In this document: positions 3,502 through 15,925 of the stretch, piece by piece
Layout: every line of letters starts with the position of its first letter
How positions within the stretch are numbered: the stretch's first letter is position 1
Source: a phage
Direction: 5' to 3' (one strand)
Length of the DNA: 64,000 bases
Sequence record: NC_101837.1
Program-made: the position numbers and the translations under genes
The notes under the pieces: generated by a model
The model's input: only the letters and a program-made list of their open reading frames with translations
What the model was told of the DNA's origin: nothing
Databases searched by the model: none

Positions 3502-3516
3502 CCTCTTGGAGGCACT

Positions 3517-4335
3517 TTGAGCAAGAAAGAGTCCAACGACAAATACTACACAAACCCTGAGTATGCAGAATATCTTGTTGGTAAAGTAAAAGATAAGTAT
3601 GGGAATTGTGCATACGTTGAGCCTTCTGCTGGAAGGGGTTCTTTTTCAAAACTATTTTCAGAGATACTGTCGTACGATTTAGTACCAGATCCTGAATTTG
3701 AAGGACCAACACCGTGCATTCAGGCAAACTTCTTGGAGGTGCATCCCAAGGCAGATGTCTTCATAGGTAACCCACCATTTGGCAAGAATTCATCCTTAGC
3801 TTGCAAATTCTTTAACCATTGTGCATCATTGCTAGAGCTTGGAGGGGCTATAGCCTTCATCTTGCCACGGACATTTGAAAAAATATTTTTTGCAAACAAA
3901 CTGGACATGTCGATGCACCTTGTCTACAGCGAAAGGTGCCCTAAGAATTCGTTTTTACTTAATGGCAAACCTTATGACGTGCCATGTGTTTTCCAAATTT
4001 GGGAGAAAAAGGCGTGCAATAGGGATCCTGTAGAGATTGGAGAGAATAAGTTATTTTCTTTTAGCACACCAGATGACTACGACTTCTGTGTAAGACGTGT
4101 TGGGTATAATGCTGGAAAAGTATTGGGGGATGATGACCCAAAATCTGAAGAATCAACATATTTCATAAAATCTTTAGTTGACGGTGTTGACAGAGTGTTT
4201 GCTGAATGCTATTCTTCTTTTCAAGAAGAAGCAGGTAAGACTGCTGGAATGAAGAGTATAGGTAAGAAAGAACTACAATACATTTTGGAGACCAGGTATG
4301 ATCAAAAGCATAGACTTGACCAAAGAACTTACTGA
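3517..4335 (+). CDS. DNA N6-adenine methyltransferase (gamma-class); start reassigned to in-frame TTG after GGAGG
   Basis: Motif X YYTNPEYA, motif I YVEPSAGRGSF, motif IV GNPPFG; the ORF-track start lies inside the upstream terminator. Confidence 0.6.
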   Translation: MSKKESNDKYYTNPEYAEYLVGKVKDKYGNCAYVEPSAGRGSFSKLFSEILSYDLVPDPEFEGPTPCIQANFLEVHPKADVFIGNPPFGKNSSLACKFFNHCASLLELGGAIAFILPRTFEKIFFANKLDMSMHLVYSERCPKNSFLLNGKPYDVPCVFQIWEKKACNRDPVEIGENKLFSFSTPDDYDFCVRRVGYNAGKVLGDDDPKSEESTYFIKSLVDGVDRVFAECYSSFQEEAGKTAGMKSIGKKELQYILETRYDQKHRLDQRTY

Positions 4336-8162: not shown

Positions 8163-10474
8163 TCACCAAGGTAATTAAAAGCAACGGATGTGAAGTGGCA
8201 TTCGATCCAGAACGTTTAAATAAGGCAGCTATTTTCGGTGACGACGGTAACGGCAATTGGTCACATATTGCACTGGATGCCTACAAGCGGTTGTATGATG
8301 GATGTACAACCAAAGAAGTTAACCAAGCTATTATAGACTCTTGTGTTAGCCGTAAAGACGAAGCACATTCCCGTATGGCTGGTCGTGTTCTTATTGGTCA
8401 GATTTATAAAGAGGCTTTTGGAGGGTTTACAAAGATCCCTTCCTTACCATCATTTTACAATACCATGGTTGAGAAAGGGTATTGGGAGGATATGGGCTAT
8501 AGCTTTACCGAGCTAAACACTTTAGACGCTGTTATTGACCACAGTAAAGATCTCGGTTATGGCTATGCAGTCCTTAAACAGTTTCGCGACAAATACGGGA
8601 TCAAGGATACTCTTAAAGACACCCTGTTTGAATCTCCCCAGATGATGTTTATGGGGATAGCAATGGCTGTCATGAAGAATATGCCGAAAGAACGTCGTAT
8701 CAACGATGTTGTAAAATTATACACTTATCTGTCCGACTTAAAGATCAATGCCCCGACACCGTACTTAAACGGGCTGCGCACAGGTAAGACAGGGTATGCA
8801 TCTTGTTGTGTAATAAAAGCTGACGATACAGCAAAATCTATTGGTGTGGCACGTGAAGTTGCGTACACAATGACGGTTAACCAAGCAGGTATCGGCTACT
8901 ACTTATCCTCAAGATCTGCAGGCGATGGTGTTCGTGGTAACACTATTAAACATATGGGTAAGATTCCATATTATCGAGGTATTGATGCTGGTGTTAAGGA
9001 GAACAGACAACAATCACGTGGCGGTTCTGCAACAGTATCATTCCTTGCACTGGACCCGCAGATTGATGAGCTAATCCGTTTGAGAAACCCTATGACTGTT
9101 GCTTCAAAAAGAATCAACACCATGGACTACTCCATCGGTATTAATAGGTCGTTTATCAACCGTGTGGCTAAGAATTTAGATTGGATGCTTGTTTCTTATA
9201 AGCACGCTCCTCAACTGCATGAGGGTATCTTCACCATGTCTATGGAGGAGTTCGATGCAGAGGTTGAGCGTATTGCTAAAGATGACAGTATTCCTAAAAC
9301 ATGGATCCGAGCCAGAGATCTTGCTGTTGAACTGATCACGCAGCGTACTGAGGTGGGAAGGCTGTATGTATACTGGACAGATGAGATGAATAGACATACA
9401 CCTTTTAAAGATGTGATCTATTCAAGTAACCTGTGTGCAGAAATAGCCCTCCCGACAAAAGGCTATTCAGATATGCGTAATATCTTCAAGTACGATGCTG
9501 ATGATGGAGAGGTTGCATTGTGCTTCCTGTCATCTCTTGTAGCTGGAAGGGTTACTCCAGAGGAGTATGAGGATGTTGCATACTACACGGTGCTTATGAT
9601 TGACAATGTTATGGAAATCATGACATATCCGTATGAAAATATGGAAAGCACAGTTAAAAAACGCAGATCCATCGGGGTTGGCCTTACCAATGTTGCACAT
9701 TTTATTGCCAGCCACAAGGTTACTTACGGGTCTCCTGAAAGTAAACAGCTCGTTCACGATCTTGCAGAACTTCACAGCTACAGCTTGCATAAGGCAAGTT
9801 TACGGTTGGCAAAAGAGCGTGGTGTCTGCGAGTGGATGCATAAAACAAAATATCCAGAAGGTTGGTTACCAATCGACACCTATAACAAAGAGGTCGATAG
9901 CGTGGTGAAAGATCCTTCTCTTAAACAGGATTGGGAAGGGTTACGTAAAGAAATCATTGAGAATGGTGGGCTACGTAATAGCGTTCTTGAAGCATATATG
10001 CCTAATGAAAGCTCTTCGCTGGCAACAAACACCACTAACGGGGTTTATCCTGTCCGTGAGCACATTATCTTTAAAAAGTCGCCACAAGGGCAGGTGCTGT
10101 TTATCGTTCCTGACTATGATGAGTTGAAAGAGTATTACACCTCGGCTTGGGACGTTGATACTAACGACATGATCGATATGTATGCCGTGATTCAAAAATT
10201 CACAGGTCAGGCAATCAGCGCGGATTTATACATAGACTACACCAAGTTGAAAGATGGTAAAATTTCAATGAAGGAGCAGTTAGGGTACCTTATCCGTGCC
10301 ACTAAATTCGGGATGAAGACATGGTATTATTTAAACTCTAGGGTTGGTGCTGGTGACTCCTTGGCAGAGGAACTTCATGCCAAGAAACAGGCTGAAGATG
10401 AAACCAGAAAGAACTATCCTTTGATTGCAGATAGTTCAGTTGAAGATCCGTATTGCGAAAGCTGTGCACTATAA
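8159..10474 (+). CDS. nrdA: ribonucleotide reductase class I large subunit
   Basis: N-terminal ATP-cone, NLCAEIALPT active-site region, 771 aa; TTG start after GGAGGA. Confidence 0.9.
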   Translation: MITKVIKSNGCEVAFDPERLNKAAIFGDDGNGNWSHIALDAYKRLYDGCTTKEVNQAIIDSCVSRKDEAHSRMAGRVLIGQIYKEAFGGFTKIPSLPSFYNTMVEKGYWEDMGYSFTELNTLDAVIDHSKDLGYGYAVLKQFRDKYGIKDTLKDTLFESPQMMFMGIAMAVMKNMPKERRINDVVKLYTYLSDLKINAPTPYLNGLRTGKTGYASCCVIKADDTAKSIGVAREVAYTMTVNQAGIGYYLSSRSAGDGVRGNTIKHMGKIPYYRGIDAGVKENRQQSRGGSATVSFLALDPQIDELIRLRNPMTVASKRINTMDYSIGINRSFINRVAKNLDWMLVSYKHAPQLHEGIFTMSMEEFDAEVERIAKDDSIPKTWIRARDLAVELITQRTEVGRLYVYWTDEMNRHTPFKDVIYSSNLCAEIALPTKGYSDMRNIFKYDADDGEVALCFLSSLVAGRVTPEEYEDVAYYTVLMIDNVMEIMTYPYENMESTVKKRRSIGVGLTNVAHFIASHKVTYGSPESKQLVHDLAELHSYSLHKASLRLAKERGVCEWMHKTKYPEGWLPIDTYNKEVDSVVKDPSLKQDWEGLRKEIIENGGLRNSVLEAYMPNESSSLATNTTNGVYPVREHIIFKKSPQGQVLFIVPDYDELKEYYTSAWDVDTNDMIDMYAVIQKFTGQAISADLYIDYTKLKDGKISMKEQLGYLIRATKFGMKTWYYLNSRVGAGDSLAEELHAKKQAEDETRKNYPLIADSSVEDPYCESCAL

Positions 10475-10480
10475 TTTTAA

Positions 10481-10500
10481 AGGGGCTTCGGCCCCATTTT
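10481..10500 (+). terminator. possible intrinsic terminator / attenuator between nrdA and nrdB
   Basis: GGGGC-ttcg-GCCCC hairpin followed by ATTTTA. Confidence 0.4.
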
Positions 10501-10512
10501 AGAGGTAGAATA

Positions 10513-11601
10513 ATGGCTGTATTTAATGCTGAGAACACCGCTCATAAAACTGGTGACTATCCGCTGTTTCTGGGACAGCAAATGGGTATGTACGACTCTA
10601 TCAACAAAAAATATCCACAACTGTTTGAACTATACAAAAAACAAAAAGAGCAAGATTGGGCAGAGGATGAAGTGGATTTGTCGCAATCTATTTCAGATTT
10701 TGTAACATGCTCAAAGTCAACTTATGACGTGATGGTGCAGACCTTGATGTGGCAATGGGAGGCTGATAGCGTTGCGGCAAGATCGATCATCTGCCTCTTT
10801 TCACCATTCATCACTAATAGTGAGCTTTTCACTCTATTGATGAAACAGTCAGAGATTGAAGTTCTTCACGCACTAACTTACTCAGAGATTGTTAGACAAT
10901 GCCTCCCTAATGCCCGTGAGATTATAGAAGAGATTCAGGAAAACCAAAACGTTCTGAGCAGATCCGGAGTTATTGTCAAATACATGCAAGAGCTTGAGGT
11001 TATTGGTGCAAAATACCGACTGGATCCTTCTAGTGTTGAAGAAGATGTTGTGCGGAAATGCATTCTTAGAGCGCTTTTTGCACTTTTAGCTCTGGAAAGT
11101 ATTGAGTTTATTGCAAGTTTTGCATGCACTTTCGCAGTAGCTGAACAGGGTATCTTTGTTCAGGTGGCGCAGCTTGTTCAAAAAATCATGCTTGACGAAA
11201 TGCTACATTCGAAAGGTGATTTTGCCATCATTGATATCTTGCTTAATGATCCCGCATGGGAGAAAAGCTTCCTTGAGATAAAGGGGGAGTTAAAAGAGAT
11301 TCTTGATGAAGTACGAACCAAAGAGTACGGTTGGAGTGACTATATTTTCAGCGAAGGAAGAGCGATTATAGGTCTTAACTCACCGTTGCTTAAAGAGTGG
11401 GTTGACTATAACTGCTCACCGATTTATGATTACTACGACATCGACAAAGACTTTGTGCCGCCAACAAAGGACCCGCTACCGTTTATGCAGGTGTGGATGA
11501 AACCTTCATTGCAACAGACGGCGAACCAAGAAATGTCGAACACTGACTACCGCGTCAACACAACTGTTAACGACGCTGAAGAAGAAATTTGGGAGTTTTA
11601 A
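10513..11601 (+). CDS. nrdB: ribonucleotide reductase class I small subunit
   Basis: Di-iron/tyrosyl-radical type sequence with E..H motifs (ALTYSEIVRQ, DEMLHS); start at ATG 10513 rather than ORF-track 10453. Confidence 0.85.
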   Translation: MAVFNAENTAHKTGDYPLFLGQQMGMYDSINKKYPQLFELYKKQKEQDWAEDEVDLSQSISDFVTCSKSTYDVMVQTLMWQWEADSVAARSIICLFSPFITNSELFTLLMKQSEIEVLHALTYSEIVRQCLPNAREIIEEIQENQNVLSRSGVIVKYMQELEVIGAKYRLDPSSVEEDVVRKCILRALFALLALESIEFIASFACTFAVAEQGIFVQVAQLVQKIMLDEMLHSKGDFAIIDILLNDPAWEKSFLEIKGELKEILDEVRTKEYGWSDYIFSEGRAIIGLNSPLLKEWVDYNCSPIYDYYDIDKDFVPPTKDPLPFMQVWMKPSLQQTANQEMSNTDYRVNTTVNDAEEEIWEF

Positions 11602-11604
11602 TAT

Positions 11605-11883
11605 ATGAGCTGCGAAAAATCTTTTTTCATCATCATTTACGGTAAGGATAACTGCCCACATTGTGTCAGAGCAAAAGAATTTGCAATCAGCAAAGGTCTG
11701 CCTTTTGTATATAAGACACTTGGCGAGGGCTACACAAAAGAAGAGCTTATTGAGAAGTGTAGTCCAATCGTCCCCAGAACGTTGCCGCAGATCTTCTTAG
11801 AAAGCGATCTTGACAGTGTCCATATAGGCGGTGCAGACGATTTCATCTCTTTTGTTAAGAATGGTTTTGGAGAGAAAAAGTGA
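11605..11883 (+). CDS. glutaredoxin / NrdH-like redoxin
   Basis: CPHC active-site motif (YGKDNCPHCVRAKEF), 92 aa, between nrdB and nrdD. Confidence 0.7.
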   Translation: MSCEKSFFIIIYGKDNCPHCVRAKEFAISKGLPFVYKTLGEGYTKEELIEKCSPIVPRTLPQIFLESDLDSVHIGGADDFISFVKNGFGEKK

Positions 11884-12743
11884 AAGTTGTAAAACGGGAC
11901 GGTAGAGAAGAGTTTTATAACGGAATTAAGGTGATCAAGGCGGCAGAGTCCGCCTTACTTGAGTCTGGACATACTGAAGAAGAAGCTTACCGGATAGCTT
12001 GTGCAGTTAATGAAGTTGTTGCTAACAATCTACCAACCGACCAGTGCACGATCTCTGTAAAAAATATCCATATCCTTGTTGAAGATGCTCTTATGGATAT
12101 GGGTTTAAAATGTGCAGCCAGAGAATACATCCAGTATAGACAGACAAGAGATAATAACAGAGAGGCAGGTGGAAAACTGCTTGCAGATATTAGTGGCTTC
12201 TTGGATCGAACTTGTGATGAATTTACAAAAGAAAACGCAAATAAGCCTACTAATCATGTACACACTCATCGCGACCTGCTTGCAGGCATCCTTAGCAAAC
12301 ACCTTGCATCAACACAGATCCTGCCAGACCGTGTTTCAGAAGAGCACAATAAAGGCTTCATCCATGTGCATGATCTTGACTACTTGATCAGTCCGTTAAC
12401 AAACTGTTGTTTGGTAAATTATCCAGATATGTTGGAAAACGGATTCAACATTGGCAACGCCCATGTCAGTAAGCCGAAGTCAATAGGGGTTGCAACAACA
12501 ATCCTTAGTCAAATCTCTAGCGCGGTAGCTAGTGCTCAATATGGTGGTCAGACTATGAGCCATATTGATCATTATCTGGCACAGTATGCTGAAGCAACCT
12601 ATGAGAAGAACCTTAAATTTTGCCAGGAACATTGGTTGCCGGATGCTGAAACTGTTGCAATGCAAATGACAGATAAAGACGTGTTTGACAGCATGCAGAC
12701 GTTGCTTTATCAGATCAACACACTAACCTCGGTAAACGGTTAA
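11880..12743 (+). CDS. nrdD: anaerobic ribonucleotide reductase NrdD, exon 1 (3' boundary approximate)
   Basis: N-terminal ATP-cone (MKVVKRDGREEFYNGIKVIK); ORF terminates where structured non-coding RNA begins. Confidence 0.7.
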   Translation: MKVVKRDGREEFYNGIKVIKAAESALLESGHTEEEAYRIACAVNEVVANNLPTDQCTISVKNIHILVEDALMDMGLKCAAREYIQYRQTRDNNREAGGKLLADISGFLDRTCDEFTKENANKPTNHVHTHRDLLAGILSKHLASTQILPDRVSEEHNKGFIHVHDLDYLISPLTNCCLVNYPDMLENGFNIGNAHVSKPKSIGVATTILSQISSAVASAQYGGQTMSHIDHYLAQYAEATYEKNLKFCQEHWLPDAETVAMQMTDKDVFDSMQTLLYQINTLTSVNG

Positions 12744-13027
12744 CAAACTGGCCGTTTTAAAACTCTGCTAACCTCAGTATGAGGGGTCAGCTGATCGCTG
12801 GCTAACGGGGAACGCTAAGGCGAAAGCTATGCCAATCCCGTGACTAGCTTCACAAGGAGTGAGGCGGTTGTAACGACTAACCTTTTGGTGTAGGGATTAT
12901 GGAAGATTCCGAAACGCAGGGGTCTGATTAAGAATCACACGGTGTGATTTCAGGCAAGAGATAGTCTGGCCTTGTGGAAACATAAGGGTGGGGACCGCAA
13001 ACCCCTTTTATCACATTAAGTTTAGGT
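12744..13027 (+). other. putative group I self-splicing intron interrupting nrdD (boundaries approximate, no internal ORF)
   Basis: ~285 nt non-coding insert between two halves of one NrdD; contains GACTA...GCGG (R-like) and AAGATAGTC (S-like) elements typical of the group I core. Confidence 0.55.
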
Positions 13028-14260
13028 TTGGACACTTCGGTCTTTGGTAGAATGATTACCAAAAATTACTTGAAAGTCCACAAAATGGGTCTTGGTGAAG
13101 AACGTATCACACCTGTGTTCCCTAAAGTGCTGTTCTTCCTGGAAGAGGGTGTCAACATGAACCCTGGGGATCCTAACTATGATTTGAAACGATTAGCTCT
13201 GGAATGCTGTGCAGAACGTATCTATCCTGACTTCGTATCTGTACCACTAAATAGAAAAGTGACAGGCTCGACAGATGGCAAAGTAACTAGCATGGGTTGC
13301 AGGAGTTTTCTTAGCAAATACAATGACTTGGAAACAGGCGAGGAGAAATACCTTGGCAGATTTAACTTAGGCGTTGTTAGCCTTAACCTGCCAATGATTG
13401 CGGCAAAAGCTAAGACGGAAGGTGTTGATTTCTTTGCAGTTCTTGACGAATACTTGGATCTTGCATATGAGGCTCACCTTGTAAGGGTTAACCGTCTAAA
13501 AGGAACAAAGGCAGGGCAGAACCCCATCATGTGGTGTGAAGGCGCTCTTGCTCGCCTGGATCCTGAAGAGAGTATTGATAAACTCTTCTATGACGGGTAC
13601 GCTTCCATCAGTATTGGGTATATTGGTGTGTATGAAACCTGTCAGATTTTGGGCAGAGAGGGTGACAAGGCTTTAGCTCTTGGAATCCTTCAGCACATGA
13701 GAGATGCTTGTGAGCGATACAAGAAGGAAAGTAGACTAGCATTTAGCTTGTACGGCACTCCTTCTGAGAGTCTATGCTATAAAGCTGCAACCTGTCTGGA
13801 TCGTGAATATCCGGAAGTGTTGAAGCACGAGCATGAATATCTCACCAACAGTTTCCATCAGCCAGTGTGGATAAATAGCTCTCCTTTTGATAAGTGGGAG
13901 TATGAGGAAGGTTTTGCTATGATCTCCTCTGGTGGCAACATTGGATACGTAGAGACACCTAACCTGAAAAACAACCTGGATGCTTTAGAGGCTCTTGTTG
14001 ACTTCGGGTATAAACATATTATGTATTTTGGTATTAACCAACCTGTGGATAAATGTCTCAAGTGTGGTTTCTCTGGTGAGTTCAGTGCAACAGCTAAAGG
14101 GTTCTGCTGCCCTGCGTGCGGATGCCACGATGAACAATATATCTCAGTGATCCGAAGAGTGTCTGGATATCTTTCCAGTCCTAACTCCCGTCCTTACAAT
14201 AAAGGTAAGCAAGCGGAAGTTATCGAGCGAGTTAAGCACTACGGAAGTTGTGGTTGCTGA
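13028..14260 (+). CDS. nrdD: anaerobic ribonucleotide reductase NrdD, exon 2 (5' boundary approximate)
   Basis: C-terminal Zn site CLKCG...CCPACGC and glycine-radical motif RRVSGYL; frame open upstream of the first ATG back to ~12986. Confidence 0.8.
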   Translation: MDTSVFGRMITKNYLKVHKMGLGEERITPVFPKVLFFLEEGVNMNPGDPNYDLKRLALECCAERIYPDFVSVPLNRKVTGSTDGKVTSMGCRSFLSKYNDLETGEEKYLGRFNLGVVSLNLPMIAAKAKTEGVDFFAVLDEYLDLAYEAHLVRVNRLKGTKAGQNPIMWCEGALARLDPEESIDKLFYDGYASISIGYIGVYETCQILGREGDKALALGILQHMRDACERYKKESRLAFSLYGTPSESLCYKAATCLDREYPEVLKHEHEYLTNSFHQPVWINSSPFDKWEYEEGFAMISSGGNIGYVETPNLKNNLDALEALVDFGYKHIMYFGINQPVDKCLKCGFSGEFSATAKGFCCPACGCHDEQYISVIRRVSGYLSSPNSRPYNKGKQAEVIERVKHYGSCGC

Positions 14261-14297
14261 TACTTGACAAAAGCCACAAGGATGTGGCACTATACAG

Positions 14298-15290
14298 ATG
14301 TTTAGGGAAGTTAGGAAACAAGAAATGGCTAAATTATCAACAGAAGAGTTTATAGAGAAGGCGAAAATCATTCACGGTTATAAATACGATTACACGAAAA
14401 CAGTGTACGTGGATTGCTATGCGAAGGTTTGCATTACCTGCCAAATCCATGGGGATTTTATGCAAGCACCTTGTAAACACTTGCAAGGTCGTGGTTGTCC
14501 TTTTTGTGCAAAACTTTCTCGTGCTGCAAAGTGTAATAAAGGTCTTAAATTTGTAGAAAGGGCCAAAGAAATCCATGGAGATAAATATGACTACTCTCTC
14601 GTATACTACAAGACTTGCAAAGACAGGGTAGAAATAATCTGCAACACTTGTGGAAATCACTTTACACAGACACCTGATAACCATATAAATTTGAAAAGAG
14701 GTTGTCCAGTTTGCAAGGGGTCAAGAATCTCACAAAGTAAAACATCACCACACGAAAAGTGGGTTGAGTCCATAAGAAGTAGAAATCCTTATGTTGAGAT
14801 ATTGGAAGAAATTATTGGGTGGGATAAGAAAGTCCTGTGCTGCTGTAAAGGTTGTAGCCACACATGGTTAACCGTACCAAGCAGTCTTAAGCAGGGACAT
14901 GCTTGCCCTAGATGCGCTAAAACAGGATTTTTATCACACGATAACGGAAAACTCTACATTATGGTTGATGATCCAGAAGTACCTACATTTATGAAAATAG
15001 GGGTCAGTCATAATGAAAGTAAGCGAAGAGACCAGATACTTAAAAGTGCACAAAGATCTAGAGCTGGTATCCGCGATCTTCACATAGTGAAAACGTTGGA
15101 AGGATCAACTGAAAACATGCTGGCTGTAGAAAAATCTATGCACAAAGCCTTCAGTAAATATAAAATAAACTTCCCTGTAAAATTTGATGGTAGTACCGAA
15201 TTCTTTAACTACAGACCTGAAGTGTTCAGTATGGTAGAATCAGCGCACAGAGAGATTTGTTGTAAACATAGGACAGGTAATAACCTGTAG
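14298..15290 (+). CDS. free-standing homing-endonuclease-like protein (T5orf172 / GIY-YIG superfamily C-terminal domain, repeated Cys/His N-terminal modules)
   Basis: Repeated HG(Y/D)KYDY...GCP(F/V)C modules; C-terminal LYIMVDDPE...KIGVS...STEFFNY resembles T5orf172 domain. Confidence 0.45.
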   Translation: MFREVRKQEMAKLSTEEFIEKAKIIHGYKYDYTKTVYVDCYAKVCITCQIHGDFMQAPCKHLQGRGCPFCAKLSRAAKCNKGLKFVERAKEIHGDKYDYSLVYYKTCKDRVEIICNTCGNHFTQTPDNHINLKRGCPVCKGSRISQSKTSPHEKWVESIRSRNPYVEILEEIIGWDKKVLCCCKGCSHTWLTVPSSLKQGHACPRCAKTGFLSHDNGKLYIMVDDPEVPTFMKIGVSHNESKRRDQILKSAQRSRAGIRDLHIVKTLEGSTENMLAVEKSMHKAFSKYKINFPVKFDGSTEFFNYRPEVFSMVESAHREICCKHRTGNNL

Positions 15291-15338
15291 AGCCATATAT
15301 CAACCTTTAAACATGTTATAAACTAAAGGAGGTGCAGC

Positions 15339-15455
15339 ATGTCATCAGGCATTTATAAAATTTGCAAGTGTGGTTGTCGTTGCAATCTTCGTTGGTGCAA
15401 GGCACTGGACGATTTTATTTGGCATTGCCCTGAATGTGATACGGAGTATCTATGA
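15339..15455 (+). CDS. 38-aa Cys-rich zinc-ribbon micro-protein (not in ORF track)
   Basis: Strong RBS AAGGAGGT 7 nt upstream of ATG; CKCGCRC...CPEC; stop overlaps nrdG start (ATGA). Confidence 0.45.
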   Translation: MSSGIYKICKCGCRCNLRWCKALDDFIWHCPECDTEYL

Positions 15456-15925
15456 ACATTGTCGGATACACAGAAGTATCTTACACAGAAGGGCCAGGTA
15501 TTAGAACTGCCTTGTGGGTATCTGGGTGCCCACACGCTTGCCCTGGTTGCTTTAATCAGGCATTTTGGTCAAAAGATAAGGGGAGGGAGTTCACTGAAGA
15601 AGATTTGCAAAAAATCTTGTCAGATCTGGATAACCCGTCTGTGTGCGGTATCTCTCTGCTGGGTGGAGAACCCTTAGCATACTATAATGAGCCAGGTATT
15701 ATTAGCCTGATGGAGAAAATTAAGGAAAAATTTGGTGACAAGAAAACTATTCTTGTATATACTGGGTTCACATTTGACCATATCTCTAGTGATGTTCTTA
15801 AACTGGCTGATATCATCATTGACGGTAAGTATGTAAAAGATTTACCAACCAAGAAACCGTTCCGAGGCAGTGATAACCAAAGAATGTTTAAAAAAGTATC
15901 AGGCGGTTGGGTTCAGGTAGACTAG
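15452..15925 (+). CDS. nrdG: anaerobic RNR activating enzyme (radical SAM)
   Basis: CPHACPGC radical-SAM cysteine cluster near N-terminus, 157 aa, adjacent to nrdD. Confidence 0.85.
   Translation: MNIVGYTEVSYTEGPGIRTALWVSGCPHACPGCFNQAFWSKDKGREFTEEDLQKILSDLDNPSVCGISLLGGEPLAYYNEPGIISLMEKIKEKFGDKKTILVYTGFTFDHISSDVLKLADIIIDGKYVKDLPTKKPFRGSDNQRMFKKVSGGWVQVD

Follow-up and report, generated by a model that had tools for sequence, protein, structure and literature searches.

In the 64,000-nucleotide (nt) stretch of phage DNA analyzed here (sequence record NC_101837.1, hereafter the window), nrdD, the gene for class III ribonucleotide reductase, lies in two separate open reading frames (ORFs), and the next gene downstream encodes a protein that resembles a homing endonuclease. 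What is the DNA that interrupts nrdD, has any part of the reductase been lost to it, and does the neighboring endonuclease carry it from genome to genome? A first-pass annotation of the window had proposed a probable ORF-less group I intron, with mobility assisted by the neighboring gene, and had left the splice sites open. We conclude, with a probability that we put at roughly 0.9, that the nrdD gene of a Vequintavirus is interrupted by a group I intron, ORF-less and of the IA2 type, and that the gene that follows it is an independent mobile endonuclease cassette.

An intact NrdD reading frame with a precisely bounded insert

A mechanical list of ORFs for the window places the two halves on the + strand at 11880-12743 (287 amino acids [aa]) and 13028-14260 (410 aa), with 284 nt between them. 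Pfam detects an ATP-cone and positions 1-154 of the NRDD profile in the first ORF, and NRDD positions 156-562 together with Gly_radical in the frame that opens at 12998; the coverage of NRDD abuts at 154|156. The NCBIfam model NF006732 matches exon 1 over positions 3-287 (273.9 bits) and exon 2 over positions 288-706 (524.9 bits). Either half alone falls below the NF006732 cut-off of 657, and the simple sum of the two separate scans, 799 bits, lies above it; taken as summed halves, the gene is a full-length, equivalog-level match to NrdD. Since the two profile halves abut, no part of NrdD is missing, and the division into an ATP-cone half and a glycine-radical half reported by the first-pass annotation is confirmed. 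Exon 1 (11880-12740, + strand; 287 codons, 861 nt) begins with GTG and encodes the ATP-cone together with the N-terminal portion of the core of NrdD. Exon 2 (12998-14260, + strand; 420 codons plus the stop, 1263 nt) encodes the NrdD core, the glycyl-radical domain and the C-terminal zinc site, and its protein is 45% identical to the NrdD of phage T4. Both exons are free of stops and frameshifts.

The boundaries of the insert are fixed by relatives that lack it. When an artificial junction (12600-12740 joined to 12998-13140) was searched against the phage collection, intron-less relatives matched it as an uninterrupted 283-nt piece, among them Murica, DrSchubert, nimi, LL12, rV5_ev156 and many others. 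In the alignment, the intron-less alleles of Murica and DrSchubert read AACGG[G]|CAAAC where the window reads AACGGT-intron-G|CAAAC, and nrdD of Murica is a single 2124-nt coding sequence (CDS), the combined length of exon 1 and exon 2. This contiguity at 12740|12998 and the length of the Murica CDS define an intron of 257 nt at 12741-12997 (+ strand). It is inserted in phase 0, after the Gly287 codon (GGU|CAA), which is GGT in intron-containing alleles and GGG in intron-less alleles. The earlier estimate of a spacer of ~285 nt matches the 284-nt gap between the mechanical ORFs; the intron itself is 257 nt because exon 2 begins 30 nt upstream of the mechanical TTG start. Comparison of the two halves with an intact NrdD has thus supplied the splice sites, at 12740 and 12998.

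Excision of exactly this segment restores the reading frame, the 5' site follows a U (U12740, the last base of exon 1) that is paired with G12751 of P1 as U.G, and a G (omega-G, G12997) is the intron's final base, as is characteristic of group I introns. An in-frame UAA opens the intron; downstream, the frame of exon 2 has its first ATG at 13052, with no evident ribosome-binding site. We predict that the pre-mRNA splices itself, through attack by a guanosine after U12740 and ligation of the exons after G12997, to give a 707-aa NrdD; without splicing, translation would end at the intron's initial UAA.

A group I fold supported by covariation

A default Rfam scan of the window at the gathering threshold returned no match. 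In E-value mode, however, RF00028 matches 12731-12987 over the whole model (positions 1-253) with 29.3 bits (E = 2e-5 in a local search of 801 nt and 0.0017 over the full window), and this is the sole Rfam match in the 64 kb. The gathering score of RF00028 is 50 bits, which accounts for the empty default scan; by the same test the intron of T4 nrdD reaches 105 bits. The Infernal/Rfam check recommended for the locus therefore yields a full-length match, at a score below the threshold for family membership.

The intron RNA is structured (minimum free energy [MFE] z = -3.97; 0/200 shuffles fold as well), as the first-pass annotation had supposed, and the thermodynamic centroid recovers P1, P3, P3.1, P3.2, P4-P6, P7.1, P7.2, P8 and P9. 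For comparison we used a sister intron that carries an HNH gene (type B; the window intron is type A), a diverged relative inserted at the same NG|Q site of a T4-like IMG/VR contig (type C, L044), and ORF-less IMG/VR relatives fetched by their P4-P5 core. Across an alignment of seven sequences, 84.5% of the cells are paired, compared with 37-51% for slid controls, 22 pairs change on both sides, and 0/500 shuffles attain the observed values. Because the sequences are related, the shuffles exaggerate the support, and more weight belongs to the slid controls and to the individual compensatory pairs. A MAFFT alignment (A1) that combined types A, B and C after removal of the ORF misaligned P7.1 through P8 and was not used for counting; it was replaced by hand-checked helices and a second alignment (A2) of the ORF-less relatives. 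An Rfam scan of the HNH-type intron (L002) was likewise misaligned, owing to its 540-nt ORF. The core helices P3 to P9, with P7 and J8/7, are present and supported by covariation, and the exact boundaries, the full-length RF00028 match and the covariation across seven sequences together confirm that the insert is, as had been proposed, a group I intron with no ORF, of the phage IA2 type.

All of its elements lie on the + strand. P1 (12734-12757) pairs exon positions 12734-12740 and intron positions 12741-12742 with an internal guide at 12749-12757, giving 9 base pairs (bp). The wobble base in the exon and the guide sequence change together, and the pair 12734:12757 is A-U in type A, C-G in type B and U-A in type C. 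The intron has no P2, as in the T4 sunY intron; a first P2 model (12767-12769/12789-12791 with a distal hairpin) was dropped because it breaks in type B. The P4-P6 domain (12805-12869) comprises P4 (12805-12810/12836-12841), P5 (12814-12815/12831-12832) and P6/P6a (12842-12869). P4 and P5 are invariant and paired in 7/7 sequences, and P6a is compensatory, with the pair 12848:12864 being C-G or U-A. P5a carries a GAAA loop and P5 a CUAAG/UAUG internal loop, which by our reading may resemble the 11-nt receptor; the P4-P6 core as a whole resembles those of Bacillus and Listeria phage introns.

The 5' strand of P7 (GACUA, 12875-12879) pairs with 12962-12966 and is followed by P7.1 (12880-12889) and P7.2 (12893-12910), the 3' strand of P3 (12916-12921), P8 (12922-12955), J8/7 with the 3' strand of P7 (12956-12966), and P9 (12970-12987). 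P7 (GACUA/UAGUC) is invariant, and both it and J8/7 (AAGAGA) are conserved in T4 as well as in the Rfam consensus. P7.1 and P7.2 are retained as hairpins of different sequence in types B and C, and their position between P7 and the 3' strand of P3 places the intron in subgroup IA2, an assignment made by hairpin layout. P9 has a GAAA tetraloop as L9, and its pair 12972:12985 is U-A or C-G. The R-like and S-like motifs quoted for the spacer in the first-pass annotation are approximate: the R element is GTTGTAACGACTA (12867-12879) and the J8/7-P7 element is AAGAGATAGTC (12956-12966), and the exact string AAGATAGTC is absent. A further hairpin spans the 3' splice site (12990-13005), pairing the intron tail GGGG (12990-12993) with CCCC in exon 2 (13002-13005); type B retains this helix with the sequence GGAG/CUCC, and L044 with GGCUG/CAGCC.

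An upstream P3 and its consequence for detection

The P3 that covariation supports joins CUCUGC at 12763-12768 to GCAGGG at 12916-12921. All of its cells are paired in the seven sequences (100%), 4/6 pairs change on both sides (12767:12917, for example, is G-C, C-G or U.G across the types), and the thermodynamic centroid yields the helix unaided. In the Rfam register, by contrast, P3 would join 12796-12803 to 12915-12921; this candidate is paired in 55% of the cells, shows no covariation and performs no better than controls, and we rejected it. With its 5' strand this far upstream, P3 is parted from P4 by two peripheral hairpins, which we label P3.1 (12772-12784) and P3.2 (12785-12803).

Four unrelated IMG/VR phage introns (L015, L018, L021 and L045) show this layout in their MFE folds, and it recurs in L012; in Bacillus phage S4-2 it was found by hand pairing alone. 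P3 stays beside J3/4 in L022, in L037 and in Listeria phage LP-114; the last was considered as a case of the same subarchitecture and set aside, because it shares the P4-P6 sequence but has a standard P3. A literature search on P3.1 and P3.2 found only a list of optional helices, in which an optional "P3.1" is given (PMC3873408), so the arrangement is a variant and not a new principle. The separation of P3 from P4 by two hairpins is probably why the window intron and similar introns score poorly against Rfam. This is a blind spot of the default scan, which misses the window intron and its relatives, and a seed alignment enlarged with such sequences would improve the detection of introns in phage genomes.

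Three states of nrdD among close relatives

About 120 phage records match the segment 11880-15290 at 90-99% identity, the closest being Escherichia phage WalterGehring (96.5% identity over 98% of the query), and the window is a Vequintavirus, an rV5-like Escherichia coli myovirus. The 257-nt type A intron occurs at the same site, with 99-100% identity, in 13 records of the phage collection, whose carriers include HeinrichReichert, RudolfGeigy, AlexBoehm, CM1, navn and SophiaRose. The sister type B intron, 797 nt long with its HNH gene in the P8 loop, occurs in 28 records, among them FV3, FFH2, WalterGehring and Mangalyan. The remaining two thirds or so of the ~120 close relatives have no intron. 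Records from the BASEL collection annotate nrdD as a two-piece join (PMC8594841), and their CDS spans imply the removal of exactly 257 nt in HeinrichReichert and 797 nt in WalterGehring. Many GenBank records (CM1, navn, bov10K2, SophiaRose, Mangalyan and FFH2) list nrdD as two or three separate genes, and the exact splice sites permit a correct join of nrdD in rV5-like phage records. Our literature search returned no paper describing the Vequintavirus nrdD intron; the rV5 paper reports terminase introns only.

Types A and B share the insertion site, the guide sequence, P4-P6 and P7, and their ribozyme parts are ~86% identical. They differ by compensatory changes in P1, P3, P6a and P9, and type B has longer P7.1 and P7.2 hairpins, another flanking exon haplotype, and the P8 ORF, which encodes a 177-aa protein with HNH_3 and I-HmuI-like NUMOD domains. 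At ~86% identity of the ribozymes, the ORF-less form is not a recent deletion derivative of the HNH form. In the P7.1 loop of a type B intron (L002, ~3510-3560), just upstream of the HNH ORF, TTGACA-N17-TAGTGT, noticed by eye, could be a candidate promoter for the intron ORF.

Over the 2124 nt of nrdD, eight substitutions are type A specific: every type A carrier has them and no other allele does. All eight are synonymous; they lie at 12683-12734 and 13009, span ~70 nt, and all fall within ~60 nt of the insertion site. They look like a short co-conversion tract. Each of the two intron haplotypes is accompanied by a short piece of adjoining exon peculiar to it, the mark of gene conversion (homing-type transfer) rather than vertical descent, and this argues that the type A intron has moved between genomes that are otherwise mosaic.

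One relative departs from this pattern. Escherichia phage V18 (L003, NC_041937; 3001-3281) has all eight intron-linked substitutions but is missing the intron and two bases more. It also has small indels near a second intron site in nrdD, and its nrdD is unannotated; the state looks like a reference-guided assembly artifact rather than a real loss of the intron. The second group I intron site (SMG|CRSF, ~13290 in window coordinates) is unoccupied in the window and occupied in some relatives, being ORF-less in L017 (~2285-2540) and holding an HNH-like ORF in navn (L008, 3228-3977); it is occupied in L044 as well. Allele divergence is raised around it. The type C intron of L044 (3550-4290, reverse strand) is related to the HNH type and sits at the identical NG|Q site, and its presence in a distantly related, T4-like nrdD means that this insertion site is used across phage lineages.

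A putative endonuclease in an independent mobile cassette

The gene at 14298-15290 (+ strand) encodes a 330-aa protein with three treble-clef zinc-finger modules and a C-terminal T5orf172 domain. Pfam scores T5orf172 at 27.3 bits (cut-off 20) and MUG113 at 24.1 (cut-off 22.3) and also finds a DUF4379 zinc finger; the protein matches PHROG 681, "endonuclease" (E = 8.5e-55), and is 98% identical to the "putative homing endonuclease" of WalterGehring. Nine residues (Y220, K233, G235, R243, E278, H282, D297, G298 and E301) do not vary among seven homologues with identities down to 34%, a GIY-YIG-like pattern; T5orf172 is a domain that we take to belong to the GIY-YIG clan. The first-pass description of a T5orf172/GIY-YIG-like domain is borne out by these matches and invariant residues. 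A sequence search of the PDB with the protein gave nothing significant, and an NCBIfam search gave no family. Translation may start at ATG 14325 instead of 14298: this is the start position in 5/7 aligned homologues, and AGGAAA lies 7 nt upstream of it.

The gene lies in an inserted cassette with sharp alignment borders (14290-15326, + strand) that is absent from HeinrichReichert, Murica, V18 and DrSchubert. Diverged endonuclease alleles (73%, 52% and 44% identity) occupy the same gap between nrdD and nrdG in other vequintaviruses, and the family is found in 653 phage records at 1123 places, often with several copies per genome. The domain and catalytic-type residues, together with this sporadic presence between sharp borders, identify the gene by its sequence as a putative free-standing homing endonuclease, and a nuclease activity of the protein is predicted from the same features. 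The cassette is a sporadic, independently mobile element in the gap where T4 has mobC. The window and WalterGehring alleles lack a 189-nt in-frame segment, corresponding to a 63-aa zinc-finger module, that is present in Mangalyan (L006, 5459-6619).

The distribution of the endonuclease family does not follow that of the intron. A member occupies the nrdD-nrdG gap in 5/13 type A, 5/28 type B and ~16/79 intron-less records (Fisher p = 0.15); of the 13 database phages that share the identical intron, eight lack a gene of the family there, and coordinates confirm an endonuclease beside an intron-less nrdD in A142 and PMBT16. Nor do the linked sequences meet: no intron-linked substitution occurs across the 1.3 kb from the intron toward the endonuclease, and the endonuclease-linked substitutions fall short of the intron. 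For the block at 14105-14204, beside the cassette, the window has the type of Murica, which lacks the endonuclease, and WalterGehring has the other. The window's own endonuclease allele is carried by the window, WalterGehring and Mangalyan, and nrdD is interrupted in 3/3, but three carriers are too few to serve as evidence. Neither co-occurrence nor co-inheritance, the marks of collaborative or trans homing, is supported by these data. A family present in all three intron states, with linked tracts that are not shared, means that intron and endonuclease behave as independent passengers, and the assisted mobility suggested by the first-pass annotation finds no backing.

Gene order and local mosaicism

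The locus reads nrdB (10453-11601), grx (11605-11883; its stop codon is overlapped by the GTG start of nrdD), nrdD, the 330-aa ORF, a 38-aa Cys-rich ORF and nrdG. The 38-aa ORF (15339-15455, + strand; CxCxC...CPEC), conserved and called "hypothetical protein" in relatives, lies outside the element, between the cassette and nrdG, and overlaps the start codon of nrdG, the NrdD activase gene (15452-15925, + strand; Pfam Fer4_12 and Radical_SAM).

Close relatives fall into two sharply distinct haplotypes, which diverge by 24% at 14105-14204, the 3' end of nrdD, and by ~50% across nrdG (15405-15900). They assort independently of the intron state and of the endonuclease state, which points to heavy local mosaicism. 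The arrangement as such is nothing unusual among phages; close relatives already have it annotated, and intron and endonuclease are both present in public genomes.

Comparison with known systems

The closest parallel appears to be the textbook case of T4, whose nrdD (sunY) intron with I-TevII interrupts the same host gene, is likewise an IA2 intron with P7.1 and P7.2 and no P2, and stands in the same order of nrdD with its intron, a free-standing endonuclease gene (mobC), and nrdG (PMC2988022). The two differ in site, the T4 intron interrupting the Tyr codon that matches Y277, 32 nt upstream of the position of the window intron, which follows Gly287. They also differ in content: the window intron has no ORF where that of T4 has I-TevII, it has the extra P3.1 and P3.2 hairpins, and it scores 29 bits rather than 105 against RF00028. 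The neighboring endonuclease is of the T5orf172 type in the window and of the HNH type (mobC) in T4. SegH reportedly replaces mobC in some T4 relatives. The target of T4 mobC is still listed as unknown (PMC2988022).

Other type A Vequintavirus records have the same intron at the same site, but none of those listed pairs it with the endonuclease allele of the window, which makes this pairing a new mosaic combination. The Bacillus phages SPO1 and SP82 have IA-type introns as well, in their DNA polymerase genes (I-HmuI and I-HmuII); there the HNH gene lies in P8, here a feature of the sister intron only, whose protein has an I-HmuI-like NUMOD domain. Those introns reside in another host gene and in phages of another host phylum, and the window copy is ORF-less. 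An intron that lacks a working endonuclease beside a free-standing endonuclease gene, as in the window, is also seen in T4, where mobE accompanies the nrdB intron with I-TevIII (PMC2790892), and the same adjacency occurs in psbA of cyanophage S-PM2 and in phage PhiI's DNA polymerase gene, which are cases of collaborative homing (PMC3984707). In these trans and collaborative systems, however, cleavage has been mapped to or near the intron site and inheritance depends on the endonuclease; the co-occurrence and tract data from the window do not support such a relationship.

Discussion

Several findings count against an intron of the type proposed. At 29.3 bits it remains under the RF00028 gathering threshold of 50, P3 is not adjacent to J3/4 and so departs from the textbook core, P10 is just 2 bp, and most of the covariation stems from few lineages. 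The short exon tract, too, could reflect selection on P1 pairing or resistance to cleavage rather than conversion. If the insert did not splice at all, nrdD would be made as two polypeptides or would be a pseudogene. The subthreshold Rfam score and the many GenBank records with two separate CDSs would agree with a split or decayed gene, and there is precedent on either count: the NrdA of phage Aeh1 is split by mobE and made as two polypeptides, and nonsplicing "introns" that contain HNH genes have been reported in related phages (PMC7344957). We nevertheless hold a split gene to be very improbable. The frame of exon 2 offers neither a start codon before 13052 nor an evident ribosome-binding site, the stop codon of exon 1 is created by the insert itself, and the insert has exactly the boundaries of a group I intron (U.G pair, omega-G) with its catalytic core elements intact and covarying. 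The exons, moreover, have kept their frame, and every intron-specific substitution in them is synonymous.

A type A copy has no endonuclease of its own, so any spread must rely on recombination, which might be general or might be begun by a nuclease acting in trans at or near the insertion site. The neighboring T5orf172 endonuclease could be that nuclease, if it cut intron-less nrdD at or near the site and repair then copied the intron, with or without the endonuclease gene. The layout matches that of T4 mobE, which mobilizes the defunct nrdB intron (PMC2790892), and there are published cases of collaborative homing (PMC3984707, PMC2988022); only 1.3 kb separates intron and cassette, and all three carriers of the endonuclease allele have an interrupted nrdD. 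We consider this route unlikely, however, since the family also stands beside intron-less nrdD and is missing from most type A phages, the intron-linked substitutions extend no farther than 60 nt from the site, with none between intron and cassette, the endonuclease-linked ones do not reach the intron, and the block at 14105-14204 differs in type between the window and WalterGehring. The short tract would be better explained by a break right at the insertion site, such as one made by the sister HNH enzyme. Under that explanation the HNH nickase of the sister intron would cut intron-less alleles, and in coinfections the immune ORF-less allele would serve as the repair template. Both intron haplotypes occupy exactly one site with a common guide sequence, the ORF-less form is 99-100% identical across genomes that are otherwise mosaic, the exon tract is short and centered on the site as a break there would leave it, and the HNH protein has the HNH_3 and I-HmuI-like NUMOD domains. 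General recombination between coinfecting phages, combined with drift, could produce the same pattern, however, and the two ribozymes are merely ~86% identical; exploitation of the sister nickase is thus a tentative proposal, more credible than homing by the neighbor.

An interrupted nrdD with a separately mobile neighbor remains our preferred explanation of the locus. A wider proposal, which we offer with considerable doubt, is that the ORF-less intron is a "hitch-hiker" spread by conversion through a foreign nuclease, and that it belongs to a P3.1/P3.2-bearing subclass of IA2 introns that standard scans underdetect. The sister HNH nickase would be the most plausible source of the nuclease, and the neighboring T5orf172 enzyme a less plausible one.

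Current understanding is unchanged by this locus. Its by-products include splice coordinates, a better-supported assignment of P3, and a clean example of an intron-linked conversion tract. For the vequintaviruses themselves, the locus is a natural three-state polymorphism, with no intron, an ORF-less intron or an HNH intron beside an independently mobile endonuclease slot, and it would suit tests of how introns without an endonuclease persist.

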